IMG/VR virus record: IMGVR_UViG_3300001683_000016
Span: 1-64,000 of that record
Reading direction: 5' to 3' (one strand)
Length of the DNA stretch: 64,000 nucleotides
Origin: a virus
The translations under genes were made by a program, and so were the position numbers. Position 1 is the first letter of the stretch. Every line of letters begins with the position of its first letter. The notes under the pieces are model-generated. The model made no database searches. It was not told the origin of the DNA and saw only the letters and a program-made list of their open reading frames with translations. This document shows, one piece after another, positions 19,748 to 63,923 of this stretch.

Positions 19748-20416
19748 TTACGCCACTTGTCTAGCAACATCGCCTATTCGTTGTTGCATGATATCTCTTG
19801 TTTGATTGTTCCTAAGCACAGACAGGGCTGCATTCATAGCATCGCTACCACCGTGTTTATCGTATGACTGTCCCATTTCTTCAGGTGTCATCTGCCCATA
19901 GACTTCTTCTGTATGTGGCGGCTTATATTGCATTGATTGTAATTCAGACACTTCCGACCCCCAACCTTGTCCTTTAGGTGCTCCTTGTGCTCTATACGGT
20001 CCAGCGCCACCTACATCAACATAGGTGGGTGTTCCATCAGGTCTCATCAATACGTTGTCCATATCCGCACCTAACGCATCCCAATTACCAATCAACGCCT
20101 GAGGTACGAAATCTTCTCTTAGCCTCTTCTTATCATCATAAGATACATTTCTAGCCCCTTCTTCAAAATCTGTGAGCATAGTGGGTCTACCTCTTTCTTC
20201 TACCATTTCAGCATTAGGTACGGCCAAACCTAATTTATTCAGGTAGCGATTCATATCGAACTCATTATTGATATGTGCTGCGGGGTTACCGCCAGCAAAC
20301 CCTCCTCGCTTTACCACAACTCTCTTTCCGTTAGGTAATGTGCGTAAACCTGCACCAGTAGAGCCTCTGAGTCTGACTTCTTCTTTAAGAAAAGCCCATG
20401 CATCATGTATTGTCAT
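19748..20416 (-). CDS. tagged PI3K/HipA-like kinase-fold protein
   Basis: N-terminal DAWAFLK tag; VVVK, NEF, LG.AVP, IGNWD....DNV, YVDVG. Confidence 0.6.
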   Translation of the reverse strand: MTIHDAWAFLKEEVRLRGSTGAGLRTLPNGKRVVVKRGGFAGGNPAAHINNEFDMNRYLNKLGLAVPNAEMVEERGRPTMLTDFEEGARNVSYDDKKRLREDFVPQALIGNWDALGADMDNVLMRPDGTPTYVDVGGAGPYRAQGAPKGQGWGSEVSELQSMQYKPPHTEEVYGQMTPEEMGQSYDKHGGSDAMNAALSVLRNNQTRDIMQQRIGDVARQVA

Positions 20417-44496: not shown

Positions 44497-44518
44497 TTCA
44501 GATTCCTCCACACCCTCT

Positions 44519-44543
44519 TTCATTCATTGTTTAAGTAGTCAAT
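44519..44543 (-). promoter_or_regulatory. conserved promoter motif (outermost copy)
   Basis: ATTGACTACTTAAACAATGAATGAA. Confidence 0.8.
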
Positions 44544-44577
44544 GTGGATTGAAGCCAAGAAAGAAAGAAATGGTTAG

Positions 44578-45058
44578 CATTACGCGGGTGTGCATTATGC
44601 AAAGCATTACGCCTTGTGTATAAGAAGAGGCATTTTTGCCCCAACCATACGGGTGGGGAATCCAAAGCGGTGCAAAGGGCTGGCGCTAAAGCGTGCTAAG
44701 TGTGAGGCGCGTTATGCCTAGCAGTACAGCGTTTATAGTGCCGCGACTTAGGTGCTTACGTGCATAGGTAAACGTACAAGCGTTACGCAAGGCGTAACGT
44801 GCGTTAGTCAAGCATTACGCTAGATTAACATGGCATTACGCTAAGAGCGTAATGTCCGACAGGCTCGCAGTACCCCATTACGCTAGAGCATTACGCTGGC
44901 TTAGCCGGAGCATTAGCATTACGCTATTAGCATTACGCTCTTATAGCCACACACAGCGCTTGAGCAAAAAAAATATTTTTGGTAAAAAAGCCCCTGCGTG
45001 TCTCATATATACAACAGTCAAGGTTTTAACATTACGCCAACTAAATATAACATTACGC
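44578..45058. repeat. CATTACGC octamer cluster at the strand switch (candidate origin or packaging/terminus region)
   Basis: 10 direct copies, 1 inverted copy, and an A/T tract at about 44966-44989. Confidence 0.75.
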
Positions 45059-45070
45059 TGTCCGCTAATC

Positions 45071-45451
45071 ATGTCGGCGGCATTCGGTAATGCATGGAAT
45101 GTGCTCAAAGCGTTACCAAATCAGCAAGTTGAGATACCCGGTGCACGATATACTTCTCATGGGCCGCAGCCAGTAAAAACTATGCATCCGGGGATTGCTT
45201 CGTTGTTGGCGAGGAAGCCGGGTGCCAATATACAAAATCCTGATATGATTGATTCGCAAAATATGGAAATGCACATGAGTGGGGAAGAAAGGGGTGGTCC
45301 AGCGCAACTTTGGGACCCCGTTAATGAAAAAATGATAACATTACCTATGAGTGAATCGTCTATGTCTGATGTTCATATGAATGATTATGGCAAAAAGCCA
45401 AATTGGGCGCTTAACTCAGTAGGAAGATTGGCTAACGATGGTCAATCATAA
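45071..45451 (+). CDS. tagged protein (AFGNAWNVLK)
   Basis: ATG at 45071 gives the shared N-terminal tag. Confidence 0.7.
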   Translation: MSAAFGNAWNVLKALPNQQVEIPGARYTSHGPQPVKTMHPGIASLLARKPGANIQNPDMIDSQNMEMHMSGEERGGPAQLWDPVNEKMITLPMSESSMSDVHMNDYGKKPNWALNSVGRLANDGQS

Positions 45452-45539
45452 GGTCCTAGATTCATTGGCGACTCATTTTTGTTCCATGTTAAAGAGTAAC
45501 GGGCGGCAGTTCAAAATAGAGTAACGCTATGTGAGGAGC

Positions 45540-46286
45540 ATGGTGGCAGCGTTCGACCAAGCGTGGGCTTTGCTGAAGGCAGTAGAGTTCGACCCTTATG
45601 CTAAGGACATAAAGGAGGCTCGCCCCTTCAAAGCATATCGTAGTATTCCGACGAAGTTCCTCGATGAGGTGCTTTCCGAAGGCATACAGCCAAGAAGTGT
45701 AGAGCCATGGACGGAAAGGATGCAGAGAAGCGGCCTCAAGCCTGAAACGAGCGCCAGCAAAGCCCATGTTTGGTCACCGAGTGACAAAGGAGTGTGGTCG
45801 TTCATGCATAAAAGAGGTGCTTTACCCAATACCAAAGGGCAACAAGAACTGAGAGAATCATGGCCTTATGCCCCTGTGAGTCATCCTGCTCTGTCTGCGC
45901 GGTATTTTGCTGATAACTTTAGTCGTCGGGCGGCAGAAATAGCAGAGACACCTGAACATATTAAAAGCAAAAAAATGCTTGATGGGGTAAAATCATCATC
46001 GACTATGCCCCCTCAGTCATTTTGGGACGAATATGCGAAACTGAATGACAATCTCCAACACTCGATAGTAGGTTCCACTATATTACCTCCGGGCAAGAGA
46101 TTCGAGGACTTGGATTGGCACAAGGGTCGTGACTATGCGACAAAACCTATACTAACGACAGACCCAATACCAGCGAGATATTTAGATGAGGCTATCCCGT
46201 TAGACTTTCAAGGAAACGAAATCCGTTATACACAAGGTAGTCGCATACCAGATAATTTTCGTAATGAATGGGGGTTTAACGAATGA
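45540..46286 (+). CDS. tagged protein, ADP-ribosyltransferase-like
   Basis: AFDQAWALLK tag; AYRS...VLSEGIQP, GVWSF, DPIPARYL. Confidence 0.5.
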   Translation: MVAAFDQAWALLKAVEFDPYAKDIKEARPFKAYRSIPTKFLDEVLSEGIQPRSVEPWTERMQRSGLKPETSASKAHVWSPSDKGVWSFMHKRGALPNTKGQQELRESWPYAPVSHPALSARYFADNFSRRAAEIAETPEHIKSKKMLDGVKSSSTMPPQSFWDEYAKLNDNLQHSIVGSTILPPGKRFEDLDWHKGRDYATKPILTTDPIPARYLDEAIPLDFQGNEIRYTQGSRIPDNFRNEWGFNE

Positions 46287-46927
46287 ACCCCTTCAACCAA
46301 GCGTGGCTTTTGCTGAAGTCCGAAATGCTGTTGTGGCCCAAACAACTCAACAATTACCGCAGCCCCGACTCTGCCAAGAGCAAGCCTGAATTGAGAATGC
46401 CGGGGCAGTTCAAGAAGCCGAGCGCAGCCGGATTCACTCAATTGTATCAGAAACCCGGTTTGGCTCGTTCATACGTGTCTCTTCCCAATATGGAACAACC
46501 GGGAAGTAGGATTGGTCTGAATAGCACTCTTAATGACCCCGCTATATCGGATAAGGACAAGGCAGGAGTCCAAGGAAGATATGATGAGCGTTTAGCCCAC
46601 AATGTGATGGGAACTGATGTACACGAGGATACGCATGTTGCGATGGATAGGATTGGGGAGACTTCGGACAATCCTTACCACAATGAGTTACCAGCCCACA
46701 TAGCAGAGACGCTTCAATTCACGAGAAGGCCGAGAGAAACGATAAACTCCAATGATGTGGTGCTTCAAGACCTCGATAGCGGCATGTCCCCTACTGAAGT
46801 CGCAGTCAAACGTGGAAAACAAGGAGCGATGATGCATCAACAGGTTAGTGGAACTGGACCCGATAATGGGATGTACACAACTGTAGGGCCGCAGAAGTTC
46901 ACCTATACGGGGGAACAGGGACAATGA
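46283..46927 (+). CDS. tagged protein, zincin metallopeptidase-like
   Basis: MNPFNQAWLLLK tag; HEDTH followed by NELPAH. Confidence 0.55.
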   Translation: MNPFNQAWLLLKSEMLLWPKQLNNYRSPDSAKSKPELRMPGQFKKPSAAGFTQLYQKPGLARSYVSLPNMEQPGSRIGLNSTLNDPAISDKDKAGVQGRYDERLAHNVMGTDVHEDTHVAMDRIGETSDNPYHNELPAHIAETLQFTRRPRETINSNDVVLQDLDSGMSPTEVAVKRGKQGAMMHQQVSGTGPDNGMYTTVGPQKFTYTGEQGQ

Positions 46928-47982
46928 ACCCCTTCGACCAAGCGTGGGTTTTGCTGAAACAAGAAGATAATAGAGATGAGATGATTGAAGGTGCATACCC
47001 TCACGAAACTCATTTGTGCAAACATTGTGGCTATCCCATCTATCACCATTGGCAACAAGGGCAAGGTGATGGAAGTCACCCACCGCAAGAGGTGTGGAGT
47101 GGTGAAGATGATGAAGGCGGAAACTGTTCAAGCCCAAGTGGATTTTGTGAGCCGGGAGAATCTCTCGGTAGGACATATCAAAGTGGTGAACCAATTGAGG
47201 CCACACCCGAATCGCACCCGAATCAAATCTACTTGAATGGGCGATTGGTTGATGCGAATGATTGGACAGACGAGCATGAAGCAGAAGTGAATGCTAACAA
47301 AGACCCGGAATCGGGCCAGCCGCTAGTCAATTGGAATGATACTTGGGATTGGAATAAGGATATTCAAACAGGCGAACCTATGGAAGTCGCTATGCGGTTG
47401 TTGAAGGATGATGACCCTCTGCAACATGTTGGGACATTTCTCAATCAATTAACACCGGATGATACGGGGGTTGAAAGATTAGGCGACCATACTGTTCACT
47501 TTGAAGGATTTACTGATATGTGCAATCTGTCAATCACACCTAATTGCCCTGCTGAACAATTACACCAAGAAGTGTGGGATGACTTTGATAAGCGACAAGG
47601 GCAAGAAGCCATCCATAGAGGTAAATGGGGTACGGAAGAAAACCCTACTATTTATTCTGTATATCATACACCGCAAGATGAGGTCAAAACAGGCGAACCT
47701 ATGGACATCGCCATGCGGTTGTTGAAGGGGCGTAACCTTTCACCAGCAGCACGTAAACACAAGTTGGAATACGATACAAAATACGAGTCTAACCCTAAAA
47801 GGGTCAAATATAGAGTTGACCTGAATCGTGAAAGACGGCGCAGGGGCATCTATGGTTCGGGCAACCGTAAAGATGTGAGTCATACCGAAGGTGGTAAACT
47901 CACCTTAGAAAACGAACACGATAATAGGGCTAGGCACTTTAAGGGTAAAGGCACACTTCGCAGAGTTAAGGTGAAGAAATGA
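46924..47982 (+). CDS. tagged polyprotein (Zn finger / unknown / HNH-like)
   Basis: N-terminal tag plus two internal TGEPMxxAMRLLK; CKHCG; C-terminal DVSH...NRAR. Confidence 0.7.
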   Translation: MNPFDQAWVLLKQEDNRDEMIEGAYPHETHLCKHCGYPIYHHWQQGQGDGSHPPQEVWSGEDDEGGNCSSPSGFCEPGESLGRTYQSGEPIEATPESHPNQIYLNGRLVDANDWTDEHEAEVNANKDPESGQPLVNWNDTWDWNKDIQTGEPMEVAMRLLKDDDPLQHVGTFLNQLTPDDTGVERLGDHTVHFEGFTDMCNLSITPNCPAEQLHQEVWDDFDKRQGQEAIHRGKWGTEENPTIYSVYHTPQDEVKTGEPMDIAMRLLKGRNLSPAARKHKLEYDTKYESNPKRVKYRVDLNRERRRRGIYGSGNRKDVSHTEGGKLTLENEHDNRARHFKGKGTLRRVKVKK

Positions 47983-48476
47983 ACCCCTTCAACCAAGCGT
48001 GGCTTTTGCTGAAGGCACCCATTTATGAAACAGGTATTCCCAACATCAATTTTGTTACACAAGGCCCATTTCCAGACCCTTTTTGGAGGGAAGAGGAAAA
48101 TGTATACGGCTACGTTCCTGATGACCCAAAAGGGAATGCGTATGGCTATTATGATGAAGGAAATGAGGTTGGGGAGATTCAACATATGACACCCGGTGAA
48201 TACGGAAAAATGACTACTGGTGAGGAAAAGGGTGGTATGTATGTTGACGCATTGGGAAGAAAAAAGTCTCCAAGAGAGTCAGATGACACTTTCTATCAAG
48301 AGTTGATGGATAGGGCACAAGCGGGAGAGAACGTCAAGTTCGGTATGCCGTATGTTTTTCCCGATTTTGAGCCTGAAACATATCATGATGGGAGACATAG
48401 AATGGCTGAACTCTTCGCTCGTGGTCATGGTGATACACCCTTACCAGTCAAAGTCATGAGGGGGACTCACGGATGA
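47979..48476 (+). CDS. tagged protein, ParB/Srx-like
   Basis: MNPFNQAWLLLK tag; MTPGEY, HDGRHR...G...LPV. Confidence 0.55.
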   Translation: MNPFNQAWLLLKAPIYETGIPNINFVTQGPFPDPFWREEENVYGYVPDDPKGNAYGYYDEGNEVGEIQHMTPGEYGKMTTGEEKGGMYVDALGRKKSPRESDDTFYQELMDRAQAGENVKFGMPYVFPDFEPETYHDGRHRMAELFARGHGDTPLPVKVMRGTHG

Positions 48477-48946
48477 ACCCCTTTGACCGAGCGTGGGCTT
48501 TGCTCAAACAAGATACGCGTCAAAGTACGTTAGGTGAGTATCATCCTGATTTTCCTTCCCCATATGGCGATGTGAAGTATTACCATGGGACAACAGTAGA
48601 GCCAGCGTCGAGAATTAACTTTGAAGGGTTGAAGCCGACGGAACCTTCCACGCTAGGGTGGAATCGAAAACTAAGTGGAATGTTTCCTAAAGGTGTATAT
48701 GCAACCGATAATAAAGATGTAGCAGCCGATTATGCCCACACGAGAGGGCAAAATAGGAATCAACAGGGTCGAATATTTGGAATAAGGGAAGGGGCACCCC
48801 AACAAGCAAATCCTACAACGCCGTTAACGCCGAATGCGCCCGATAACGTATTTCGATATGACGAAAAAATACCGAGACAGTATCTTACTCCGGTAGATTA
48901 CCCAAGTGAGAAACTTGTCCCATATTTTAGGTACGGAGATGAGTGA
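48473..48946 (+). CDS. tagged protein, ADP-ribosyltransferase (H-Y type, Tpt1/Arr-like)
   Basis: MNPFDRAWALLK tag; YYHGT, I..EGL, GVYAT, A..YA, IPRQYL. Confidence 0.65.
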   Translation: MNPFDRAWALLKQDTRQSTLGEYHPDFPSPYGDVKYYHGTTVEPASRINFEGLKPTEPSTLGWNRKLSGMFPKGVYATDNKDVAADYAHTRGQNRNQQGRIFGIREGAPQQANPTTPLTPNAPDNVFRYDEKIPRQYLTPVDYPSEKLVPYFRYGDE

Positions 48947-49795
48947 ATGAGTGACTTCTCCATTTACGAAGTTGGTCCACGCGACGGTCTACAGAGCGCC
49001 GACACAATAACATCAACATATGACAAAGTAACCCTGATACGAAAAATTGCTAAGGCCGGTATCAAAAATATCGAAGTTGGCTCAATGGTCAATCCTGACA
49101 GAGTTCCTAATATGGCCGATAGCGATGTGGTTTTTCTCAAGGTTCAAGATTTAGCGCCTGAGCACAATCTCGGTGTCTTAGTGCCTAATCGCAGGGGAGT
49201 TGAGAGAGGAAAGGCTGTAGGTGTGGAAAAGTTCAATATTTTTTTCTCGCCGTCCAACTTTTTCAATGTCAATAACTTCGGAAAGAGCCTAAATACGATT
49301 TTTGCTGAATATTGTGGTGCATTAGACGGAATCCGACCCGAAAACGTTAGAGTATACCTTTCTACAGCCTTTGGATGTCCCATAATAGGTGAAATACCGC
49401 AAGAAGATATGTTAAAAACCATGGAATGGGCTAATACGCTGGGTGATACTATCGTTTTGTCTGATACAATTGGCAATGCTAACCCGTCCTTAATTCGTAA
49501 AGTGATGCGTTTAACTGACAGAAAAATAGATGCTAAGATAGCACTACATCTACATCATGGATTTAGAGAGGGTAGAATGTATGATAACTTGTCTGCTGGC
49601 TTTGATTGTGGGATAACTCAGTTCGATTCAAGCATTGGTGGGATGGGCGGATGTCCGTTTATACCGGGTTCAGGGGGCAATTTAGCCACTGAACAATTAG
49701 TACGCTGGGGTAGTAAAGAGAATCTTGATTGTGGTGTTACGATTAAAGATTTAGAACCGCTAATGAAGTTTGTAAATACTAGAATAAAAGTATAG
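48947..49795 (+). CDS. hmgL: hydroxymethylglutaryl-CoA lyase (DRE-TIM)
   Basis: EVGPRDGLQ, VPNMAD, AFGCP, DTIG, HLH, GGCPF..G..GNLATE. Confidence 0.92.
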   Translation: MSDFSIYEVGPRDGLQSADTITSTYDKVTLIRKIAKAGIKNIEVGSMVNPDRVPNMADSDVVFLKVQDLAPEHNLGVLVPNRRGVERGKAVGVEKFNIFFSPSNFFNVNNFGKSLNTIFAEYCGALDGIRPENVRVYLSTAFGCPIIGEIPQEDMLKTMEWANTLGDTIVLSDTIGNANPSLIRKVMRLTDRKIDAKIALHLHHGFREGRMYDNLSAGFDCGITQFDSSIGGMGGCPFIPGSGGNLATEQLVRWGSKENLDCGVTIKDLEPLMKFVNTRIKV

Positions 49796-49807
49796 CGTTA
49801 ATAGCAA

Positions 49808-50629
49808 TCATGCTACGGCGACCTGCCCGCCAGTTCCTGTACTGGCTTTTGCTCGACCTGCTGATGACAAATCTTCAATTCTTTTCATTTCGGCTTGTTG
49901 TTTGGCTTGATTTTGCTGTTTATGCTGTTCTAGTTGATTAAAACCGTATGCGCCTGTTGCTGACGCTACGCCAATTGGAGTGTTAGTTTTTTGACTATCG
50001 TCGTAATTTTTCTGCGCATCTTGCAATTTTTCATTCATTTTATCGCTTTGTGATTGAGCGGCATTGACATTTTGTTGAGCGATATTTTCGGTTTCATAAG
50101 CATCCATTACTTCGGGTGTAAAAGAGGTTTGACCAGTATCAAAGCCTGTACCTTCTGTTAGTTTGGTAGTTTCCATACTCGGTGTTTCTGTCGCTGCATC
50201 TTCTGCTCTTTGTGATAATTGTCCAAACGGATTATTTTCACCCGATTGAGATTCAAAGCCTGTACCACCATATTGTGTTAAGTCTGCATCTTCACCGGGC
50301 AAATCCGCAAATCTTTTCTTTGCTGCTCCACTTTTATAATTAGGACCGCGAGAATAGGAAACACGCCCTGCTTGTCCAGTCGTCATTGATGCTGTTTGTG
50401 CAGCCTTACTTGCATCGCGTGCAGCCTTCAAACCTTTCCCCGCTTGCGCTGCTTTTCTCCCAGCCAATAATGCTCTACCACCTTGAACTCCGACCATAGC
50501 ACCTCTTGCCGCAGCACCTGCTGCTAGTGAAGCGCCACCCGTAAAAGGTGCAGCCAGTATAGAGGCTGCTGTTAATGCAGTTCCTAATTTACCTTTCACC
50601 ACTAAAACAGAAGGTGTGGCGGCTCCCAT
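49808..50629 (-). CDS. Ala/Gly-rich protein with hydrophobic N-terminal segment
   Basis: Lone minus-strand gene in the plus arm; AAPFTGGASLA segment; start MGAATPSVLVVKG. Confidence 0.65.
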   Translation of the reverse strand: MGAATPSVLVVKGKLGTALTAASILAAPFTGGASLAAGAAARGAMVGVQGGRALLAGRKAAQAGKGLKAARDASKAAQTASMTTGQAGRVSYSRGPNYKSGAAKKRFADLPGEDADLTQYGGTGFESQSGENNPFGQLSQRAEDAATETPSMETTKLTEGTGFDTGQTSFTPEVMDAYETENIAQQNVNAAQSQSDKMNEKLQDAQKNYDDSQKTNTPIGVASATGAYGFNQLEQHKQQNQAKQQAEMKRIEDLSSAGRAKASTGTGGQVAVA

Positions 50630-50789
50630 ACTCCCACCTGTATTGCGGTGATGATGAGTGGTATGGAAAGAAGAAGTTGCAACAACTTGAACCTGCGGAA
50701 AGGGAACCACCACGAATACAGCACGAAGCGTAACATATTAGAAGTATCGCACTAGTAGAGAAGGTGTTAGCAGTACGGCGGAGAGCAAA

Positions 50790-51053
50790 ATGAAACCAAT
50801 AGATGCAGCAATAAAACTTCTAAAATCTACCCCTTCTTCTCAAGTCGCTATGCAACACGATATGCCTTCTTACATGGAAGAAGCGCTAAATCAAAGCGGT
50901 AAAACTCGTTCTGATAGCCGAAAAAAGAAAGACAAGGCTACAAAGTTACGTCAAAAAATAGACGACCATGAAGAAGATTCGCAAATAATTGATTTCTATA
51001 GACAGAATCACCCTGAGTGGTTTGATTCATTTAGAGGTGGCGAAGGTGAGTAA
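50790..51053 (+). CDS. tagged small protein (PIDAAIKLLK)
   Basis: Tag variant at the N-terminus. Confidence 0.65.
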   Translation: MKPIDAAIKLLKSTPSSQVAMQHDMPSYMEEALNQSGKTRSDSRKKKDKATKLRQKIDDHEEDSQIIDFYRQNHPEWFDSFRGGEGE

Positions 51054-51579
51054 ATTGAATAAAAGACCAAAGAAAGGTGTTGCAGTAGTTATTAGCATCG
51101 GTCCTAAAATGAAAACTAAGCCAACGGATGCTGCTACTCCTGAAATGCCAATAAAGAAGTATGGTTCAATGCCAATGAAAAAGGCAATGGCTGTTCTAAA
51201 ACAAAGGGGTAAATATGTACCCACAACTGCTGAAGATGAATATGTTGCATCAAATTCTGAAAATCGACATCATCCTATGAGTAATAGAGAAAAGGATGAG
51301 GCGTGGAAAGAGGCGCAGTTAGATGGAAGATATGATGAAGATTACTATCCCGATGAGGATGAAACACCTATATGGAATGATAATCGACAACCAATCGGTA
51401 AACCTGAGTTTGGTAATGAAGGTGCACGTGAAGCAGAAATGAATCAAGCAGAGCGTGCTGCAATAATGGCAGAAGGTATGCCTGAGGGGCGTAGACCTCG
51501 TATTCCACCTCGAACAGAAGGTTTTGACCCTAATAAGCAAGGTCGAGTGCCAAGAGATATTTTTCAAAATAGAAGGTAA
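51046..51579 (+). CDS. protein with internal tag variant (PMKKAMAVLK)
   Basis: GTG start overlapping the upstream stop. Confidence 0.6.
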   Translation: MSKLNKRPKKGVAVVISIGPKMKTKPTDAATPEMPIKKYGSMPMKKAMAVLKQRGKYVPTTAEDEYVASNSENRHHPMSNREKDEAWKEAQLDGRYDEDYYPDEDETPIWNDNRQPIGKPEFGNEGAREAEMNQAERAAIMAEGMPEGRRPRIPPRTEGFDPNKQGRVPRDIFQNRR

Positions 51580-51583
51580 GTGA

Positions 51584-51811
51584 ATGAGTGCTTTCACAAA
51601 ATCTTGGCTATTTCTCAAAACCGAGCCAATTGATATGCAGCAAGGCTCAGATGGAACTTGGCGTGCACCTCAGGAAGATATAACACCAGAAAAAAAATTG
51701 TGGCAACAAATCCAAGCAAGAAACGCACAGGCTAGGCAAAACTTGCAGAAACCTGCACAAGTAGCACAACCTAAACCTACACCACAACCGGGGTATTCAG
51801 GATGGATGTAA
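51584..51811 (+). CDS. tagged small protein (AFTKSWLFLK)
   Basis: Tag variant. Confidence 0.65.
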   Translation: MSAFTKSWLFLKTEPIDMQQGSDGTWRAPQEDITPEKKLWQQIQARNAQARQNLQKPAQVAQPKPTPQPGYSGWM

Positions 51812-51812
51812 A

Positions 51813-54695
51813 ATGGTATTCAATAAATCTTGGAACTATTTGAAATCAATAAGCGATTGGTCGTCTACTGATAGTTTATATGGTAATGAGTATGAAGATG
51901 AACCTAGTATAGAAAGAAGAAATACTCCAACTATGGATAACTCGTATCAAAAAATCTTACCTCAAGATGACCCAAGATTAGATTATAGAACTGGTTGGAA
52001 AGGTGTAGAACCCGTTAGGGCTATTCGTGTACAATCAAATCATCGAAAGGCAGGTCAACCCGTACCTCAAGACGGCTCTAATATAAATTATGAACAAGGT
52101 GACCCAAAGTTACCGCCAAAGATTCCTGAGATACCTGATGACGATGACCCTGTTTGGGATGACCCCGACTCACGATGGAGTAAAGACCCCAAATCGGGTT
52201 CAAGATATTATATGTCGGGTAAATATGAAGATGGTAAGTATATTTCTCGTAAAAACAAGCATTTTGTTGATTTGAAAAATGCAAAGGCTGGAACTTGGGC
52301 TGCAAACAATACTGTTGGGGATATTAATAATTTATATACTCATAACCAACCTGATAAGTTGGTCTATATTCGTGGGAGTCCCGATAAATATGGTAAAGTA
52401 CACAGAAGGGATAGTGACGAAGCGGATGAAGGTTTAGCAGAAATGTTTATCGAACATAAAAAAGATATTTCACCTGAAAACCTTGTTGAAGTACCGTTAA
52501 AGACTCATTATAGAAACCAAACAAAAGATATGGGTACTCCTGACCTTGGGCATAATAGACGCTCAAAAAGTGATAAAAGCGGGCGAGTTAGTCGTTGGAG
52601 TGATAAACCTGTACCTTGGGGCTACAGCCACAAGAAAAAGGGCGAACCAATGGACATAGCCTTCCAGTTGCTCAAGATGTCTGCTGATGAAGCAGATGAG
52701 TTGGAAGAGCAAATGCTTTCTGATATGGAAAGAGGGACCAGTAATCCACGCTCACGAAGAAAACAGCGAAGTATGGGCGAAAGGGAATCAAAGGCATCTA
52801 TCCATAATTTTCCCGGTTCATCATCTCGTAGAGAAATGTGGGATGAAAAGCAGAAAGAAAGAGACTGGGAACGATGGGGAAAGAGACATGCTGAAGATAA
52901 AGCAATTGCAGGAAAAGACCTACCCTCATATCATGGGTTTGGTAGCGATAGGCTAAGAGAAATCCATCCGGGTGATAGAGGGAACGATTTCTCATCTATG
53001 AAACCGGGAAAATATGAGTTTGACGGTGTAGGTAGGGAAGAAAGACCCATACCTTTTGAGCCGGGTGATAACCTTATGGAGTGGTTACAGCCCGGATACA
53101 ACGAATCTAACAACCTAAGACTATTCAGGGATAAGGATGACTCTAAACATGAGTGGCAACCAAAACCGTGGACAACAAGTGGCCCTATCAATCATGTTCC
53201 CGAAACCCAAGAATGGGTAAACAACCCTTTTGATGAAGAACCAACTTTTCACGGGATACCATTCAATGAAGATACGGGTTTCACAACAGGTGAACCAATG
53301 GACATAGCCTTCCAGTTGCTCAAGGGAAAGACAAGGCAATCTACTCTTTGGGGTTACGACCCAAAAATGGTAGAGAACTTACTCGCAGAAGATAACAGTA
53401 ATATTTTCATCGCCGCTAAACCCGGAAACGATGATATGCCCGATGATGAACAAAATGAGCGTTCGGATAAAATGCTACAAGACCTCGCCGCACTCAAAGA
53501 GGAACATGGTCACTTCGATATAACCAGTGCCACAGGTAGAGCGCAGTGGGACGCAGAACCATCTTTCATGCTCACTAACGTGCCTGATAGTGCAAGGGAT
53601 TCCATTAATGAGATAGCGGAAAGATACGGTCAGGAATCCATGGGAATCTCGGAAAAGGGGGAGAAAGGGGTGAACTACGTTACACCGGAGGGGGAGGTAA
53701 AGGACAAGTTCAGTAGTATGGAGATGCAGGAAAAACCGGAGTACTCTACAGATTTTCCGAGTAGTCAGAGGCTGGCTTTTACGGGTTGGCAGGAAGCAAA
53801 TAAGGCTAATCCAATGCACATAGCCTTCCAGTTGCTCAAGGGTTGGGCAGGTGGTGTTAGAGGTATAGGTAATAATGCCACGGACAACATTTATCATTAT
53901 CCACACGAATTAGATTACGGCGCGATAGACGAATATATGGGTGAGAATCCTGATGCTACTCTCGGTAGTATGGTAACGCCGTATCTACAAGGACAGTTTA
54001 CAAATAATCCTCCTCTCTTTCCAGAATTAAGCACAAATCCGCCAACCTATCAAAGTGAAAGACCTACTCAATTACAAAGCACAGTTCCGGCACCTTTTCC
54101 ACAAACCCCCGAACAATCTAAAGGTGTTCAAAATCTCATTGATGATGGATTTGAAAACTATGAATCTAGAGATAGAACGAGAAAACCCCATTACGATAGC
54201 ATGAATAATGCAGTCAGAGTATTATCTAGAAATTTAAGAAGAAACCCTGCATACAATTTTACGCCGCCGGGACGATTACGAGGCACTAAGGGACAGGGCG
54301 GTAGAAGTAGGCAAATGCAGAACATGAAACTAAGAAGTTTGTTAGATACTCCTGTATCTCAAAGTATGGCAGAGATGAACATACCGAAACAAGGAATACC
54401 AATTGCGGCAGGCGAACCAATGAACATAGCCTTCCAATTGCTCAAAGAGCGCAAGTCACCAGCAGCATTTGCTCACAAGTTAGAGTATGACAAGCAATAT
54501 CAAAAGACACCTAAGCGCGTAAAGTACCGTGAGCAATTAAACGCAGAGCGTAGGAAGCGTGGCATATACGGTAAGGGTGGTGCGGATGTTAGCCACACAC
54601 AAGGTGGTAAACTCACTCTTGAAAGCGCACATGCTAATAGAGCAAGACATTTCAAAAACAAAGGCACTCTCCGCAGGGTCAAGGTGAAAAAATGA
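51813..54695 (+). CDS. tagged five-segment polyprotein (ART-like / unknown / SAM-lyase-like / unknown / HNH-like)
   Basis: N-terminal FNKSWNYLK; internal PMxIAFQLLK at 52641, 53289, 53811 and 54411. Confidence 0.8.
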   Translation: MVFNKSWNYLKSISDWSSTDSLYGNEYEDEPSIERRNTPTMDNSYQKILPQDDPRLDYRTGWKGVEPVRAIRVQSNHRKAGQPVPQDGSNINYEQGDPKLPPKIPEIPDDDDPVWDDPDSRWSKDPKSGSRYYMSGKYEDGKYISRKNKHFVDLKNAKAGTWAANNTVGDINNLYTHNQPDKLVYIRGSPDKYGKVHRRDSDEADEGLAEMFIEHKKDISPENLVEVPLKTHYRNQTKDMGTPDLGHNRRSKSDKSGRVSRWSDKPVPWGYSHKKKGEPMDIAFQLLKMSADEADELEEQMLSDMERGTSNPRSRRKQRSMGERESKASIHNFPGSSSRREMWDEKQKERDWERWGKRHAEDKAIAGKDLPSYHGFGSDRLREIHPGDRGNDFSSMKPGKYEFDGVGREERPIPFEPGDNLMEWLQPGYNESNNLRLFRDKDDSKHEWQPKPWTTSGPINHVPETQEWVNNPFDEEPTFHGIPFNEDTGFTTGEPMDIAFQLLKGKTRQSTLWGYDPKMVENLLAEDNSNIFIAAKPGNDDMPDDEQNERSDKMLQDLAALKEEHGHFDITSATGRAQWDAEPSFMLTNVPDSARDSINEIAERYGQESMGISEKGEKGVNYVTPEGEVKDKFSSMEMQEKPEYSTDFPSSQRLAFTGWQEANKANPMHIAFQLLKGWAGGVRGIGNNATDNIYHYPHELDYGAIDEYMGENPDATLGSMVTPYLQGQFTNNPPLFPELSTNPPTYQSERPTQLQSTVPAPFPQTPEQSKGVQNLIDDGFENYESRDRTRKPHYDSMNNAVRVLSRNLRRNPAYNFTPPGRLRGTKGQGGRSRQMQNMKLRSLLDTPVSQSMAEMNIPKQGIPIAAGEPMNIAFQLLKERKSPAAFAHKLEYDKQYQKTPKRVKYREQLNAERRKRGIYGKGGADVSHTQGGKLTLESAHANRARHFKNKGTLRRVKVKK

Positions 54696-55063
54696 GTAAT
54701 TATCCGTCATACCCAACGACACCTCCTAAAAAATGTGAATATTGTAATGGTGCTGGAATTATTGACCCTTATGGTGATGAAGAGGATGTGGCTCAGGCTG
54801 ACCCAAGATATCCACATGAAACATGTTGGAAGTGCAAAGGAACAGGTATACAGACAGAATGGTCATTTAACCCATATATGCCTTCTTTCCACCCCCCTTC
54901 TTTCCCCCCCCCTTCTTTCCACCCCCCTTCTTACCACGCCCCTCCCCCGTCCAAAATGGAATTAGGAGAGCCAACAATTAATTTTGACCCTGAATGGCAA
55001 GAAATGAATAAAAGTTCTAGTGTTGCATTTTCATTAGCGTGGAACTTACTTAAATCAGAATAA
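54692..55063 (+). CDS. Zn-finger/Pro-repeat protein with C-terminal tag (AFSLAWNLLK)
   Basis: CEYCNGAG, CWKCKGTG; PSFHP repeats. Confidence 0.65.
   Translation: MSNYPSYPTTPPKKCEYCNGAGIIDPYGDEEDVAQADPRYPHETCWKCKGTGIQTEWSFNPYMPSFHPPSFPPPSFHPPSYHAPPPSKMELGEPTINFDPEWQEMNKSSSVAFSLAWNLLKSE
54881..54937 (+). repeat. 15-bp tandem repeat with poly-C (PSFHP, about 4 units)
   Basis: ccttctttccacccc units. Confidence 0.8.
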
Positions 55064-55064
55064 A

Positions 55065-55148
55065 CTGTCCGATAATTCCGATTGTACGTCTATACAAATA
55101 TACATAATATTACTTGTATATAGACAATACATTAGATTATTCGGACAG
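55065..55148. repeat. palindromic element, copy 3 of 3
   Basis: CTGTCCGA..TGTA.GTCTATA...TATAGAC..TACA..TCGGACAG, followed by a TATA-like AACCCTTAAG. Confidence 0.8.
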
Positions 55149-55195
55149 CCAACCCTTAAGATGACCCCCACTGTGGGCTAACACGAGGTCACAGC

Positions 55196-55852
55196 ATGAG
55201 CAGAGATGTAGGGGATACAAACGAAATGAAAATGACAGGGTTGATTTTATCTCAATCGGCCTTAGTTGGATTAGCAATAGGAGTATATAGTTCGGGTTTA
55301 TGGATGCCCGCAGGTTCAAGTGCAAGTTCAACAATAGATGGTATGACTTATGCGATGGGTGCGCTTGCAGTTCAAACAATAGCATATTATTTGTTTAAGA
55401 TGTTCTTTGAACAGTCTATGAAAGAGAAAGTGGAAGTTGCAGAATTACAAAGAAACAGGCAGAATATGTATAGACAGCAGCAAATGGGCTTTGACCAACG
55501 TAGAGTAGATTTAGAATTGAGACAAATGGAACTGCAATTAGAAAACGAATTACGTATGATGCATGAAGACCCTAACAGAGTATTAGATAATAATTTTAAT
55601 AGCGGTGCAGTTAGTGCTGGTGTTCAAGGTGACTATCATAATACCTTCAACCCCGGACTTGTACCTGTGCATGGTGCAAAAAATGAGGTACCAATGAATC
55701 TTGGACTTACTAGTACACAGGAAGCAGTTGACTCAATGGCTCACTCCAATTTACCGCCACGCAGTTTACCTATACCGCCAAGAGACGGACAACCTACAAC
55801 ACAGCGTTTGAAGAAAGATGGTACGCCGGATTTAAGATATAGAGCATCGTGA
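55196..55852 (+). CDS. membrane protein (2 TM plus coiled coil)
   Basis: Two hydrophobic segments, Q/E-rich coil, C-terminal LKKDGTPDLRY. Confidence 0.7.
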   Translation: MSRDVGDTNEMKMTGLILSQSALVGLAIGVYSSGLWMPAGSSASSTIDGMTYAMGALAVQTIAYYLFKMFFEQSMKEKVEVAELQRNRQNMYRQQQMGFDQRRVDLELRQMELQLENELRMMHEDPNRVLDNNFNSGAVSAGVQGDYHNTFNPGLVPVHGAKNEVPMNLGLTSTQEAVDSMAHSNLPPRSLPIPPRDGQPTTQRLKKDGTPDLRYRAS

Positions 55853-55863
55853 GGTAGACCGAT

Positions 55864-56151
55864 ATGGTACTACCCGGACAACTAATTCCCTCTCCGTTGC
55901 GTATATTTCGTAATATTGGTGATGATTCGGTCGAAGAAACTCTTAGAGCAATGCATTTAGCAAATACTGTAGATAATACTTATGAATGGGGACTTGGTTG
56001 GATTAGAACAATAGTCGTATCTATTGTTGCTGTTATGTCTGTGTCTGCTATGGAAGCGAACTCAGATTGGAATCTTTGGGAATTAACAGTAGAATGGTGG
56101 TATCAAAAAGTAGCAGATTTTGGTTCTTGGATTACTAATAAGTTTAGTTGA
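55864..56151 (+). CDS. small membrane protein
   Basis: IRTIVVSIVAVMSVSAM segment and Trp-rich amphipathic tail. Confidence 0.65.
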   Translation: MVLPGQLIPSPLRIFRNIGDDSVEETLRAMHLANTVDNTYEWGLGWIRTIVVSIVAVMSVSAMEANSDWNLWELTVEWWYQKVADFGSWITNKFS

Positions 56152-59715: not shown

Positions 59716-60116
59716 TACCTGTATCGGATTTAATGCAAGTTCAACATCCGGGTTATCGTACTTTTATACAATCTAATACTATGTCCGCTATGCATTATCC
59801 TTTATTTTTTGATTATTGTATATGTGTATCAGAAAGATTTAGACATTATGCATATCAAGAGGCTAATGTACTAATTAATGAAAATAGTCTTATGCATATA
59901 ATAGATTGCATAAAACAATTAGATGATACCGATGAGCCTGAAATAGTATTACCGTTGAGAGAACAGATAAGACATTCATGTTACGAGTTCTTAGAACATT
60001 GTAATGATATGTCTACTAAATTCAAAAGCCCAACCAGTATTTCTTTATTTTATAATGAGTTAGGACAACTCGTGATGCAGACCGCTTTTGAGTTTGCGGG
60101 GGTACAACATGAGTAA
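59712..60116 (+). CDS. hypothetical protein
   Basis: 134-aa coupled ORF. Confidence 0.6.
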   Translation: MIPVSDLMQVQHPGYRTFIQSNTMSAMHYPLFFDYCICVSERFRHYAYQEANVLINENSLMHIIDCIKQLDDTDEPEIVLPLREQIRHSCYEFLEHCNDMSTKFKSPTSISLFYNELGQLVMQTAFEFAGVQHE

Positions 60117-61509
60117 GCCAGTAAAGATTTTGAAGTCAGGTATGACTAGTACTGGTAGCGATACTCGTATGTATGGACCGAGAAGTGAATCCTCTCACAT
60201 GTTCCATGGTAATCACGAAGATGAAGGGGATGTTTACGGTGGAGAAGGGGGTGAATATCGTGATGCAAGAATTGACCGCAAAAAGAAAGAACGTAAAGAA
60301 AGAGAATCTGAAATGAAGAAGTTAAGACATATTTCAGTAACTACAGCAGATTTACCTCCTGAAGATGAGGAAGAAAAAGATAAAGACTTAGAACCGACAA
60401 AATTCGATAATGAACTTGAGCCTTCTTTAATGACCGGTACTCCGGGTAATTTTGGTGCTATGACTAGTATGGCTAATCAAGCAAGGGGGCCGGGTTTTGC
60501 CGGTGGGCATAATTTTGCTATGGGAGAACCAATGAATATAGCGTTCCAGTTATTGAAAGGCGGGAGAGCCGGTTTTATAGGTAAAAAACCAAAGAGGGCG
60601 AAGGGTGCTAAAGCAGCAAGAGCGCATAAAGAAAGGCAGAAGAAATGGAGGCCATCTACTGGTGAGTTCAAAAGGCCGCCGGGTGGTATGACACCGGCTA
60701 GTGCTACATCTAGAAGAGCAAAGGCAAGAATGCGAGGTATTGCCGGTAGCAAGAAAACAGGGTTAGGTAGAGCACATCTTGCTGTCGAAATGTCTCACAG
60801 AGGTGTAAAAACTAAACAGCCTATGTCGAAAGATGTAAAGAGATATAGACAATACCTAGGACAGTCTGAAGCAAGAAAGCGTTTAGGTAACATACGAACT
60901 ATTTCTTCTACACCTTCTAGATTTGGTGCACGTTCATACAAAGCGGGGTTAACTGGCGGTGGTACACTACAAAGTCTACTCCCCGGACAAGCCCAACAAA
61001 TGAGAAGACCATCACTTAGGTCAATTAGACCTCCACCGTTAATGCCACCTTCTGCACCTAGTAGAGCCACTTTACCTTCACCTTCCATACCGAGTCCTCC
61101 TGTAATGTCCCAACCAAGAATGGGAGTTGGGGTGCAAAGCATGTCCAACCAAAGTCCAACTTATAGACCTAAGTTACCTAGTTCTTCAATACAAGGTGCA
61201 CCTGTAATGACTGGTGAGATTGGAGAAGGTAGTGAACTACAAAAAAGGGGACTATCATACTATGACACCACAGAATTAAGACAATTACTCCTTGATGCTA
61301 AAAGAGCCTTGAACCGTAAAGAGAATAAGAAAAAGGGTAAAGGAGAGAGAAGTACAGATGCTGCTAGTCATTTACCCGCCCATACAGAAGCAGGCCCGAA
61401 ACAGACCACAAGACCTGAAGGCGCTACAGAAGATGCAAATAATGAGCCTCGCACATTTGGTATTAATCCTCTAGACCATCTTACAAGTAGAGGCGGTAGA
61501 ACACCTTGA
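60109..61509 (+). CDS. acidic/basic low-complexity protein with internal tag (GEPMNIAFQLLK)
   Basis: Tag at 60523-60558 separates an acidic segment from an R/K-rich segment. Confidence 0.75.
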   Translation: MSKPVKILKSGMTSTGSDTRMYGPRSESSHMFHGNHEDEGDVYGGEGGEYRDARIDRKKKERKERESEMKKLRHISVTTADLPPEDEEEKDKDLEPTKFDNELEPSLMTGTPGNFGAMTSMANQARGPGFAGGHNFAMGEPMNIAFQLLKGGRAGFIGKKPKRAKGAKAARAHKERQKKWRPSTGEFKRPPGGMTPASATSRRAKARMRGIAGSKKTGLGRAHLAVEMSHRGVKTKQPMSKDVKRYRQYLGQSEARKRLGNIRTISSTPSRFGARSYKAGLTGGGTLQSLLPGQAQQMRRPSLRSIRPPPLMPPSAPSRATLPSPSIPSPPVMSQPRMGVGVQSMSNQSPTYRPKLPSSSIQGAPVMTGEIGEGSELQKRGLSYYDTTELRQLLLDAKRALNRKENKKKGKGERSTDAASHLPAHTEAGPKQTTRPEGATEDANNEPRTFGINPLDHLTSRGGRTP

Positions 61510-63923
61510 TTGACTCATTCATCATAATGAAATCTCTTTTACTTAGAAAGGGAGACGGTAATTACAACCTGTTTGCAGGCCAATTACAAGCCTTGAGATA
61601 CCCTCCACCTGATTCTCATAATCCTGACCCTGACGGAATGGATATTCCAGCATTCGCACACACCGGAGCACATGGTGAAAAAGAATCAGGTATTCCCGGC
61701 GTAGGTCAGGTATATCCCGGTCAATGGAAAAAAGGAATGCATGGAGAAAATGTCTACGGTGATGAATCGGGCGGAGAACACATGCATGGTATTGACGGCA
61801 TTATACGAGCAGTTGGTGATTCTCTTTTACAACACGGTATTAAAGTACCTGCTAAAGATGTAATACAAAAAGCCATAGACATGCATAATCAAGACCATAA
61901 AGAAAATAATCATTTACCAAATGTAGATGACGTTGCTTGGAGAAAAATATATTTATCGCCATTAACAGAACAAGACCATAGAGTTAGAGGTAACTATGAC
62001 CAAGATGGTAATTTAACAACAACATATACTAACAGGCATGGTGATGACCATAGAAATGGTACTTATTTAGAATCTTATGCAGTACCGTTCAATAATCAAC
62101 TTGGTCAAGTTATGGGTGAGTTAGGTCATCCTACACCCCAACAACATAGTTGGATAAAGAAACCTTACGTTAAACCACATAGATTACATTTAGTTCCTGA
62201 TGGAGAGGGCGGAATGGAATTTGGCGCACAAGCGGTTGACACAGGTAAAGTAACTGATGGGAGAATACAACCGAGTCAAGCAGCAAAATGGGGAGGTAGA
62301 ATGCCTGATAGTAGAGCCTTTCAAAATATATCATCTTGGGGTATTGCACATCATTACCCAAACACATATTACATTCCTCAAAGAGACGCAGCCCCCGGAC
62401 AAAAAAGCCAACCAAGAACACAAACAATTAATAGTTTTCTTCATCATATGGCTTTAACGACTGGGAAAGACAGAGATGGTATTCTGAGTAATCTGATAGT
62501 TGATAGTTCAGGTGCTATGAAACATTTAGCAAACATACCGGGAGAAATAAACGGTAAACCGATAAAAGCGTTATTACAAACCCCTGAAGGACAATTAGAG
62601 GCAGCAAAATATTTCTCTCAGTTTCCAGCATTTCAAGCAGTTTATGGAGAAAATAGAAATCCTAAATTTAATGAAGACGGTAGTGTGAAACAACCGGGTC
62701 AAACTGTTGGAAGAATGAATCATTTTTATGGTCAAAGATATGGTGATACAGCAGAAGAAGGAAAAGGATTCGACCACTTTATGAGCCATAGTAGTAAAAT
62801 TGGTGTTGAACACCAATTAACTGGTAAAATAGGCCATCATAATAGAGCAAAAGATGCTTGGAGTAATGTTGTGCTTGCAGCATCGCAAGGAATTAACCAC
62901 ATGGATGATGAAATATCTCCTGAGGATTTACAGGCCGCTAATATTAATTTGCACGATACTCCTGAAACTAGGGCTAATGCTCCAAATATAAAAGCAATAC
63001 TAGACCATTTGTTTCACACCCACACTATAGCAGGTGGACACGAAAGAAAAGAAATACCTACACAAGAAGAATTACAACAACTACAACCTATTGTAGATAA
63101 TATAATTCAAGGTGGAACACATGAAGATAGAACTCAACTTGGCGTACCTGACTATATTAGATATTCAGAGATGCCTAATTCTATGACACCTGTGGGTGCA
63201 TCTATGCAGCCTGAAGAAAGTTCGTTAAAACCTAGAGATGGAAACGCAAAGGGTCAAGGCGGTGCACCTCTTCCGATTACCGGCGGGGCGGCGACGGCTG
63301 CAACTAATGCCGCACCACCACCTCAAACTCCACCACCTCAAACTCCACCTCAACAAATTGGTGTTATGCAAGGCCAACCTGCTAATGCTCCAAATTATCC
63401 TCCCCAAATGACATATGATAGAGGTCAAAGATTATCACAACCTGAATCTATGAACTTAACGCCACAACAAAGACAAAGGTTACAATTTGCAAACGCTCCT
63501 CAAAATGAAGTAGCACAAACAATGAGACAATCGGGCGCTGCGCCACAGAGAGCACCTTTAACTCCTGATAGAATGCAACAATTTCAACAAAATGTAGGAG
63601 ACCCTTATCAGAGATTCATATCGCAATATGCTAAAAGTTCTGATAATCCTAATGCTGCTAAAGAAAGATTAATCAAAGCGGTTGAAATATTACAAATAGA
63701 AGATGCAAGAAATGATAATGAAATAATCAAACACATGCCTTCAACACAATTAAGTGTAAATTCAATTACAGATATTCTATATTTAGCGAAAATGTTAGAG
63801 ATTACATCTATGGATGTTAGTACAATCTTAAACACTAAAGGCGATTGGCAAAGAATATCCAAGACATACGGTTATTCAGATAGAGTAGTTAAAGTAGTCA
63901 AGGTTTCATTCGGAGGTATCTAA
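61506..63923 (+). CDS. large His/Gln/Pro-rich protein, probably virion-associated
   Basis: 805 aa; PPPQT repeats at about 63315-63353. Confidence 0.7.
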   Translation: MIDSFIIMKSLLLRKGDGNYNLFAGQLQALRYPPPDSHNPDPDGMDIPAFAHTGAHGEKESGIPGVGQVYPGQWKKGMHGENVYGDESGGEHMHGIDGIIRAVGDSLLQHGIKVPAKDVIQKAIDMHNQDHKENNHLPNVDDVAWRKIYLSPLTEQDHRVRGNYDQDGNLTTTYTNRHGDDHRNGTYLESYAVPFNNQLGQVMGELGHPTPQQHSWIKKPYVKPHRLHLVPDGEGGMEFGAQAVDTGKVTDGRIQPSQAAKWGGRMPDSRAFQNISSWGIAHHYPNTYYIPQRDAAPGQKSQPRTQTINSFLHHMALTTGKDRDGILSNLIVDSSGAMKHLANIPGEINGKPIKALLQTPEGQLEAAKYFSQFPAFQAVYGENRNPKFNEDGSVKQPGQTVGRMNHFYGQRYGDTAEEGKGFDHFMSHSSKIGVEHQLTGKIGHHNRAKDAWSNVVLAASQGINHMDDEISPEDLQAANINLHDTPETRANAPNIKAILDHLFHTHTIAGGHERKEIPTQEELQQLQPIVDNIIQGGTHEDRTQLGVPDYIRYSEMPNSMTPVGASMQPEESSLKPRDGNAKGQGGAPLPITGGAATAATNAAPPPQTPPPQTPPQQIGVMQGQPANAPNYPPQMTYDRGQRLSQPESMNLTPQQRQRLQFANAPQNEVAQTMRQSGAAPQRAPLTPDRMQQFQQNVGDPYQRFISQYAKSSDNPNAAKERLIKAVEILQIEDARNDNEIIKHMPSTQLSVNSITDILYLAKMLEITSMDVSTILNTKGDWQRISKTYGYSDRVVKVVKVSFGGI

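Follow-up and report, generated by a model that had tools for sequence, protein, structure and literature searches.

The DNA considered here is the first 64,000 nucleotides (64 kb; hereafter the window) of a 115,554-bp genome from a tailed archaeal virus, which is filed in IMG/VR as record IMGVR_UViG_3300001683_000016. The virus is a magrovirus, and its host group is the uncultured marine group II (MGII) archaea. Magroviruses are among the most abundant archaeal viruses of the surface ocean. Our subject is a 12-residue helical peptide ending in Leu-Leu-Lys, referred to below as the tag, that is carried by approximately fifteen unrelated accessory proteins and also recurs between the modules of polyproteins. 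The tag is a real and portable element under peptide-level selection, and it is joined to variable, unrelated cargo in an island of genes on the late strand.

Genes for an SNF2 helicase, a thermosome-type chaperonin and a DNA polymerase of family B lie in the minus-strand half, a set that is usual for magroviruses (PMC5434244). The plus-strand half begins at ~44.8 kb and continues past the window into a morphogenesis module, which includes the genes for TerL (64552-66033), the portal (67258-69006) and the major capsid protein (MCP; 77364-78533), as well as those for an 1879-aa protein and an S78 protease-scaffold. Judged by MCP, the closest cultured relatives are the haloviruses HVTV-1, HCTV-1 and HCTV-5, with identities of 31-34%. 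The tag island is located directly upstream of the morphogenesis module and in the same orientation. The coding strand switches at ~44.5 kb, which is also where GC skew reaches its minimum. The island (window positions 44000-56000) has a G+C content of 0.42-0.47, compared with mostly 0.35-0.43 in most other parts of the window, and its tags favour CTC, GAC and TTG codons while the genome favours TTA and GAT.

Nineteen copies of the tag were located in the genome. Nine of these are N-terminal, on plus-strand proteins whose open reading frames (ORFs) start at 45062, 45531, 46283, 46924, 47979, 48473, 50790, 51584 and 51813; one is C-terminal, on the plus-strand protein encoded at 54692-55063; and seven are internal, at 47371, 47692, 51166, 52641, 53289, 53805 and 54411 (+). 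These copies had all been listed in the initial annotation of the window, and all are present. Two further copies lie outside the island range, at 60523 (+) within ORF 60109-61509 and at the N-terminus of ORF 19748-20416 (-). The tag has two parts: an amphipathic helix that is capped by Pro and places hydrophobic residues at i, i+4 and i+7/8, and an invariant hydrophobic-Leu-Lys end. Its consensus reads MNPFDQAWxLLK for the N-terminal copies and GEPMDIAFQLLK for the internal copies. In the AlphaFold2 (AF2) models of both cargo proteins that were modelled, the tag is predicted to form a helix ahead of the domain.

A strict form of the pattern, A-[WFM]-x-hydrophobic-L-K, yields 18 six-frame matches in the genome, compared with 0.96 in block-shuffled DNA (maximum 4), and 16 matches in ORFs of at least 60 aa, compared with 0.27 after residue shuffling. 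The tag is confirmed as a genuine feature that occurs much more often than chance would allow. With a profile derived from 297 unique tags, 16 strong matches at 9-22 bits are obtained and then only noise. The variant tags at 50790, 51584 and 51813, although present as the initial annotation had proposed, score in or near this noise. Subgroups of tags within the genome are identical even at synonymous sites, which points to recent duplication or conversion and suggests that tags are natural recombination points. The internal tags at 52641-54446 and 47371-47727 are coded by [GA]G[CT] GAR CCN ATG, which resembles a ribosome-binding site followed by a start codon.

The tag in related magroviruses

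Related loci were gathered by using the GTPase gene located downstream of the island as an anchor. This gene is present in 127 viral contigs, and 80 related loci were taken for comparison. These 80 magrovirus contigs hold 346 strict tags, the late-gene strand carries 345 of 353, and the consensus is [M/G/S]-[E/T/N]-[P/A]-[F/M]-[D/E]-x-A-[W/F]-x-[L/V/I]-L-K. Five near-complete relatives each have their tags grouped in a single same-strand island of ~15 kb. Given that the 313 distinct tag DNA sequences make use of all synonymous codons wherever Pro, Ala, Leu, Lys or Asp is conserved, selection acts at the level of the peptide. When IMG/VR was scanned for P-F-D-x-A-W-x-L-L-K, only 55 stretches were found, of which ~7 are expected by chance according to our own estimate.

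The initial annotation held that unrelated proteins follow the tag and anticipated that a tag scan of magroviruses would uncover variable cargo. Both statements hold true, since the 80 related genomes exhibit highly variable cargo, with the 428 modules between tags falling into 139 clusters. Five modules of the present genome have no homologue among 134 related loci, and the order and number of modules vary between related viruses. Modules that are ADP-ribosyltransferase (ART)-like, DUF3293-like or basic, as well as the module m3, occur in relatives both as tagged stand-alone genes and as internal parts of polyproteins, and in cyanophages a module can stand untagged. Homologues of the 466-aa protein described below carry either one tag or two tags flanking an extra module, which in one instance is DUF3293-like. 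Because the cargo is variable and its modules are portable, the tag is not a fixed part of one conserved domain, a possibility that the initial annotation had raised. A metabolic gene encoded mid-island, which is HMGL-like (48947..49795, +; Pfam HMGL-like E 1.5e-25), serves as an internal control and is untagged in this genome and in 40 of 44 relatives, the other four being cut at the locus edge. This gene, found in 44 related contigs, belongs to the HMG-CoA lyase / 2-isopropylmalate synthase family.

The two parts of the tag differ in their persistence. In divergent orthologues the helix degenerates, whereas the hydrophobic-hydrophobic-Lys ending persists (VIVLK, MILVK, DILK). The residues after the Lys (P1) are also biased: P1' is enriched in A (2.6x), M, E and Q, with K, L and V nearly missing, and P2' is enriched in D (2.5x) and E. 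The string T-R-Q-S-T-L directly follows the tag in both the ART-like (48509-48540) and the DUF3293-like (53325-53350) modules of this genome, and it follows 9 of 356 unique tags in relatives.

Tagged genes and their cargo

Two of the tagged proteins could be assigned to a known fold, and in each case the match is at the fold level only. The 157-aa protein encoded at 48473..48946 (+) carries an N-terminal tag and a cargo domain that appears to adopt the ART fold. Its Pfam matches to PARP (E 0.013) and ART-PolyVal (E 0.093) are both below cut-off. The AF2 model (pLDDT 71) places the tag in a helix at residues 3-14, followed by a low-confidence linker, and nearly all of the top Foldseek matches belong to the ART superfamily (KptA/Tpt1, Arr, PARP10/14 and pertussis S1), although these are modest, with E of 2e-3 or weaker and TM ~0.4. 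In the alignment of homologues, YHGT and GVYAT are conserved, and no invariant catalytic Glu was seen. The 165-aa protein encoded at 47979..48476 (+), examined by alignment and AF2 (pLDDT 86; tag helix at residues 3-11), likewise has an N-terminal tag, and its cargo domain, which includes the motif DGRHR, folds in this model as a ParB/sulfiredoxin (Srx) domain. Its nine best structural matches (VIA) are described as, or known to be, proteins belonging to the ParB/Srx superfamily, the best being Osa (4ovb) at a modest Z of 5.5. All 22 homologues aligned are tagged, and within DGRHR, G138, H140 and R141 are invariant while the D and the first R are variable. The ART-like and ParB-like labels of the initial annotation are therefore supported to this extent.

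The remaining labels fared less well. The 214-aa protein encoded at 46283..46927 (+), whose N-terminal tag is detected by the tag profile, does have an HExxH motif in its cargo as annotated, but its identity as a peptidase depends on this motif and one weak Peptidase_M91 lead at 0.89; Pfam and PHROG searches gave no hit, and no homologue was found in the related loci. The module at 53325-53804, labelled SAM-lyase-like, and its six homologues (7 of 7) match both DUF3293 (best E 6.5e-6) and S-AdoMet_lyase (best 2.8e-4), but every match is below the gathering score. This module is likely to be a distant relative of the S-adenosylmethionine (SAM) lyase and DUF3293 families rather than a filed member. 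The HNH-like label for the C-terminal module of the two polyproteins was not supported: only phrog_6437, a family of unknown function, matches this module, and no Pfam hit was obtained at E up to 0.1.

The phrog_6437 domain (modules 47728-47982 and 54447-54695) is very basic, with ~30% Lys plus Arg. In Syn5 (gp50), a marine cyanopodovirus, and in S-CBS2 it forms a small protein by itself, with no tag. The domain is also found in the marine cyanopodoviruses P60 and P-SSP10 and in 68 Flavobacterium phage records, where it is likewise free-standing, small and encoded adjacent to virion genes. We consider it a candidate DNA-associated protein that spans the divide between bacterial and archaeal viruses.

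Sequence searches of the cargo against the PDB gave no significant match, and among the cargo proteins there was no match to MPTase or MuF and none at cut-off to any Pfam polyvalent-family model. ART, ParB-like and metallopeptidase domains are listed for polyvalent proteins packaged in capsids (PMC5512222), and the cargo types found here (ART, ParB/Srx and a possible metallopeptidase) are among them. The set of ART-fold, ParB/Srx-fold, SAM-lyase-like and basic DNA-binding-like modules fits enzymes with known virion delivery.

Within the island, a 129-aa protein (45062..45451, +) has an N-terminal tag (45074-45109; 9.5 bits) ahead of an orphan cargo that has no homologue in the 134 related loci. 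The 251-aa protein that follows (45531..46286, +) has an N-terminal tag at 45543-45578, detected by the tag profile, and weak ART-family leads (Arr, DarT, PARP and pertussis S1, every one <0.9 or with TM<0.5); its five homologues in relatives all have an N-terminal tag. Beyond the HExxH protein is a 352-aa cassette polyprotein (46924..47982, +) with an N-terminal tag, internal tags at 47371 and 47692 and a C-terminal phrog_6437 domain of isoelectric point (pI) 10.9, of which modules 1 and 2 are orphans. Downstream of the ParB-like, ART-like and HMGL-like genes is an 87-aa protein (50790..51053, +) with a weak variant N-terminal tag (2.5 bits), for which 14 of 15 homologues are N-terminally tagged. 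It is followed by a protein with an internal tag at 51166-51201 (51100..51579, +; 13.1 bits) and by a 75-aa protein (51584..51811, +) whose variant N-terminal tag has SW in place of AW (3.2 bits).

The largest tagged product is a 960-aa cassette polyprotein (51813..54695, +), which starts with a variant tag and has four further tags, nearly identical to one another, inside it (52641, 53289, 53805 and 54411). Of its five modules, the one between the second and third internal tags is the DUF3293/SAM-lyase-like module and the last matches phrog_6437. The adjoining gene codes for a 123-aa zinc-ribbon protein (54692..55063, +) with a C-terminal tag that lies two residues before the stop (11.8 bits). 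Further downstream, a conserved 466-aa protein (60109..61509, +) has an N-terminal leader ending in KILK, a full tag at 60523-60558 and a basic tail of pI 11.5, and a conserved 798-aa protein (61527..63923, +) begins with a short leader ending in LLLRK, followed by GDGNY. Homologues of the latter in two relatives terminate in a full tag. The 222-aa outlier (19748..20416, -), which is N-terminally tagged (9.4 bits), is encoded in the replication module, and an opposite-strand tag match in the 223-aa ORF of a relative may mark its counterpart, which hints at conservation. Neither this outlier nor the 466-, 798-, 208- and 1879-aa late proteins matched a Pfam or PHROG family.

Hydrophobic-Lys sites in head proteins and the role of the tag

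The initial annotation expected LK-type sites in capsid and scaffold proteins, and such sites were found where maturation cleavage is expected, in the protease-scaffold and in MCP. The protease ORF (75967-77334, outside the window) encodes 455 aa from a GTG codon at 75967 that has a GGGGA Shine-Dalgarno sequence; an ATG-based call of 401 aa drops the first strand of the S78 domain together with a 19-residue leader. This leader ends in ILK↓GAND (the arrow marks the position after the Lys), and the Pfam S78 domain occupies residues 22-173. A second site, ILK↓ED, follows the S78 domain, beyond which conservation drops sharply in a variable linker that leads to the scaffold part. Across the 80 relatives the leader is variable, yet it always ends with [ILV]-x-[ILV]-[LVI]-K before [GSA]-[GSAN]-[ND]-[DE]-L, and HVTV-1 has VFK↓S just ahead of its S78 domain.

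In MCP, residues 32-38 read LLK↓ADSP. A direct search for MCP homologues recovered only relatives with at least 79% identity, and the site was surveyed in 122 representatives with mutual identity of at most 50%. Among these, 75% have L/I/V/F at P3, 75% have K at P1 (and 11% have R) and 78% have D at P2', and the site comes after a loop of 0-32 residues. The HVTV-1 MCP aligns at this position as MSK↓ADN. Covariation of the tag Lys with the MCP site could not be assessed because the next residue is K wherever the MCP P1 residue is not. Three conserved genes just upstream of the TerL gene begin with KILK↓S, LLLRK↓GDGNY and VIRK↓EG, and in relatives the leader of the 798-aa protein is variable, yet hydrophobic-(R)K and the [GS]DGN after it are retained. 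The same hydrophobic-Lys ending is therefore found at predicted domain or propeptide boundaries of the protease, MCP and three late proteins. The residues favoured after the tag, A/E/Q at P1' and D/E at P2', agree with MCP LLK↓AD and protease ILK↓ED. In HK97, the type S78 system, the known capsid cleavage site in gp5 lies in TFNK↓S.

Given that hydrophobic-Lys endings are present at the protease boundaries and at the MCP N-terminus, the tag is most likely an address-and-cleavage signal that loads enzymes into the virus head. We propose this reading tentatively and with somewhat less than even confidence, and we infer both capsid loading and cleavage, as well as delivery into the host, from patterns in the sequences. 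According to this model, the helix would dock accessory proteins and polyproteins onto the assembling procapsid, by way of the scaffold-protease, the inner face of MCP or the portal. The S78 prohead protease would then cut after the Lys, which would strip N-terminal tags and split polyproteins into their modules, and the variable enzymes and basic DNA-binding-like proteins would be packaged and delivered together with the DNA. Core proteins that assemble through their own contacts would need only the short site, whereas accessory cargo would need the full helix. The simplest model covering all of the evidence appears to be a helix for docking joined to a maturation site specific for Lys.

Several observations weigh against this reading. 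The likeness between the structural proteins and the tag is confined to the last 3-5 residues: the tag profile detects a full tag in no structural protein of the genome, including the scaffold, MCP and portal, and the protease-junction motif scores -0.4 bits on this profile. Tripeptides resembling LLK are common, and the conserved K-A-D of MCP could be purely structural. The vir519 MCP has N before A-D, and thus K is not universal at this site. Pro occupies P1' in 13 of 330 tags, and in the ParB-like family the conserved cargo begins right after the Lys, without a linker. One tagged gene, that of the 222-aa protein, belongs to the replication module and is encoded on the opposite strand. No tag was found in HVTV-1, HCTV-1, vir519, Syn5 or S-CBS2, nor in five contigs with 41-85% related MCP, including two smaller tailed viruses at 41% MCP identity. 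Absence from HVTV-1, HCTV-1 and the two smaller tailed viruses indicates that the tag is a lineage-specific add-on whose receptor is not deducible from this distribution. Finally, cleavage would achieve nothing at the 23 tags located at the extreme C-terminus of a protein in the related loci, and these cases indicate that docking must serve a purpose independently of cleavage.

The same C-terminal tags leave room for a docking motif that serves a hub other than the capsid, by which effectors would be recruited to one host or viral partner without obligatory cleavage. Candidate partners include the host RNA polymerase or replisome, the viral Arf-like GTPase/membrane cassette just downstream, and a replication compartment. 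The tag would function N-terminally, internally and C-terminally for such a purpose, its F/M-x3-W/F-x2-L helix face is typical of groove-binding peptides, one tagged gene is part of the replication module, and the GTPase/membrane cassette that adjoins the island is conserved. We nevertheless judge a non-capsid hub to be unlikely, as it would leave unexplained the terminal hydrophobic-hydrophobic-K, which is the most conserved feature even after the helix has degenerated, the likeness of the residues after the tag to the MCP and protease boundary sites, and the existence of polyproteins punctuated by tags.

Those polyproteins, with their cassette architecture, would be well accounted for if the tag were a processing signal alone, comprising a propeptide and a cleavage site used in the cytoplasm by S78 or another peptidase with no packaging involved. 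Such processing would set polyprotein modules free and switch on enzymes that may be toxic, and it is in keeping with the hydrophobic-K sites that flank the protease domain, with the existence of a tagged HExxH protein and with the processing of polyvalent proteins by embedded peptidases (PMC5512222). C-terminal tags would be pointless under such a scheme, a conserved 12-residue helix far exceeds the 3-5 residues present at the protease's own sites, and the HExxH protein is not conserved in relatives. Furthermore, HK97-type prohead proteases act within the procapsid. Processing without packaging is in our view improbable.

We see even less reason to favour the idea that tags are self-associating helices that bundle effectors into an inner-body-like bolus or condensate, whether encapsidated or not. 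A short amphipathic helix in multiple copies per genome, with several per polyprotein, could in principle confer multivalency, but the tag has neither a heptad pattern nor the length of a coiled coil, and the conservation of the terminal Lys and the P1'/P2' preferences would go unexplained, making this a very unlikely account. Scarcely credible is a signal at the level of the nucleic acid (a recombination substrate, a translation-initiation region or an internal start) to which the peptide is incidental: tag subgroups are identical at synonymous sites within the genome, in relatives, insertions of a module together with its tag fall exactly at tags, and internal tags have Met at -3 within GGNGAA CCN ATG, like a Shine-Dalgarno sequence and start codon, but as a primary cause this signal is rejected on the full use of synonymous codons over the 313 distinct DNA versions, and recombination at tags is more readily taken as a by-product that accelerates cassette shuffling than as the purpose of the tag. 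Internal starts at the Met of internal tags were not supported, given that the Gly codons at -6 (GGC 25, GGT 24, GGA 16, GGG 4) display no Shine-Dalgarno preference.

A broader form of the address-and-cleavage reading, which we advance with a little more reserve, is that magroviruses use a modular address code, wherein any protein with a 12-residue LLK-ending helix would enter the procapsid as cargo and be released by the head protease. With the same reserve, the island would under this code represent a fast-shuffled arsenal of injected enzymes for host takeover and anti-defence.

Relation to known systems

The tag system is analogous to the T4 capsid-targeting sequence (CTS) and to polyvalent proteins, and it is homologous to neither. 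The CTS of T4, which is present on IPI-III and Alt and is removed by gp21, is a short N-terminal amphipathic peptide common to unrelated proteins, as is the case for the tag. The CTS ends at the consensus of the head protease, and the hydrophobic-K ending of the tag, a candidate cleavage site, appears at the edges of the S78 domain, in MCP and in three late proteins. The CTS cargo comprises an ADP-ribosyltransferase and basic DNA-associated proteins, and the cargo described here includes a predicted ART fold and basic modules. The CTS locus of T-even phages is hypervariable between relatives, and the tag island similarly varies between related viruses. The differences are equally clear. The T4 cleavage motif is L/I-x-E, in contrast to the hydrophobic-L-K of the tag, and the protease in the present system is an S78 enzyme fused to the scaffold rather than gp21. 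In addition, the tag serves as an internal polyprotein separator and occurs C-terminally, and its virus has an archaeal host.

The polyvalent proteins of phages and conjugative elements consist of unrelated effector domains that are joined together, encoded beside virion genes and proposed to be packaged and then proteolytically released (Iyer et al. 2017, PMC5512222). The proteins of 352 aa (three modules) and 960 aa (five modules), encoded in an island upstream of head genes, resemble them in joining unrelated modules near virion genes. However, polyvalent proteins have been described without a repeated inter-domain tag, and their processing has been attributed to embedded MPTase or other peptidase domains, whereas here the same 12-residue peptide precedes every module and also heads stand-alone genes.

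Other systems share fewer features with the tag. An S78 protease is used for maturation in HK97 as well, and the hydrophobic-K sites bracket the S78 domain in the present virus and lie ahead of it in HVTV-1. In HK97 a C-terminal tail of the protease itself directs its targeting, and we know of no tagged accessory cargo family in that phage. Encapsulins use a short terminal peptide to dock diverse cargo inside an HK97-fold shell, and this peptide is not cleaved; the resemblance of such cargo-loading peptides to the tag is one of idea only. In the giant phages phiKZ and SPN3US and in the P1 Dar system, the prohead protease is reported to remove the propeptides of many head-internal proteins at a short consensus, with anti-restriction cargo among the substrates (PMC5694885, PMC10052503, PMC12810830). 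Their propeptides are long and do not constitute one portable motif, and the cleavage consensus differs from that of the tag. A search of the capsid-targeting literature returned bacteriophage systems only, and a tag-like motif is not mentioned in the magrovirus papers that were searched.

If the address-and-cleavage reading is correct, the T4 internal-protein principle would reach both archaeal viruses and the S78 protease family. Archaeal viruses would gain their first case of such a system, which would also be a viral counterpart to encapsulin cargo peptides. A motif search would then list the candidate injected effectors of every magrovirus (ART, ParB/Srx nuclease-like, SAM-lyase-like and orphan proteins), and this effector set would indicate which defences MGII hosts use. 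The rule itself would be tractable, consisting of a 12-residue tag, a Lys-specific cut and recombining, tag-flanked cassettes, and it would offer a ready handle for putting foreign proteins into HK97-fold shells. Even with a receptor other than the capsid, a peptide common to more than 130 unrelated cargo families would provide a handle on a central hub of infection.

Several other features of the genome were observed. An 1879-aa ORF at genome positions 70282-75921, between the portal and protease genes, lies where HVTV-1 encodes its giant 'zeta toxin' protein; it is untagged, and Pfam and PHROG scans of it gave no match. The tail region includes a 5516-aa ORF (genome 88525-105075, outside the window) that likewise carries no tag. 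Within the plus-strand island, a 301-aa low-complexity ORF rich in Ala, Gly and Gln is encoded on the opposite strand (49808-50713, -) and matches no family. Lastly, two paralogous neighbouring genes at 36440-37125 (-), which code for proteins of 118 and 110 aa, share their first eleven residues, M-I-D-T-D-D-Y-E-G-H-T.

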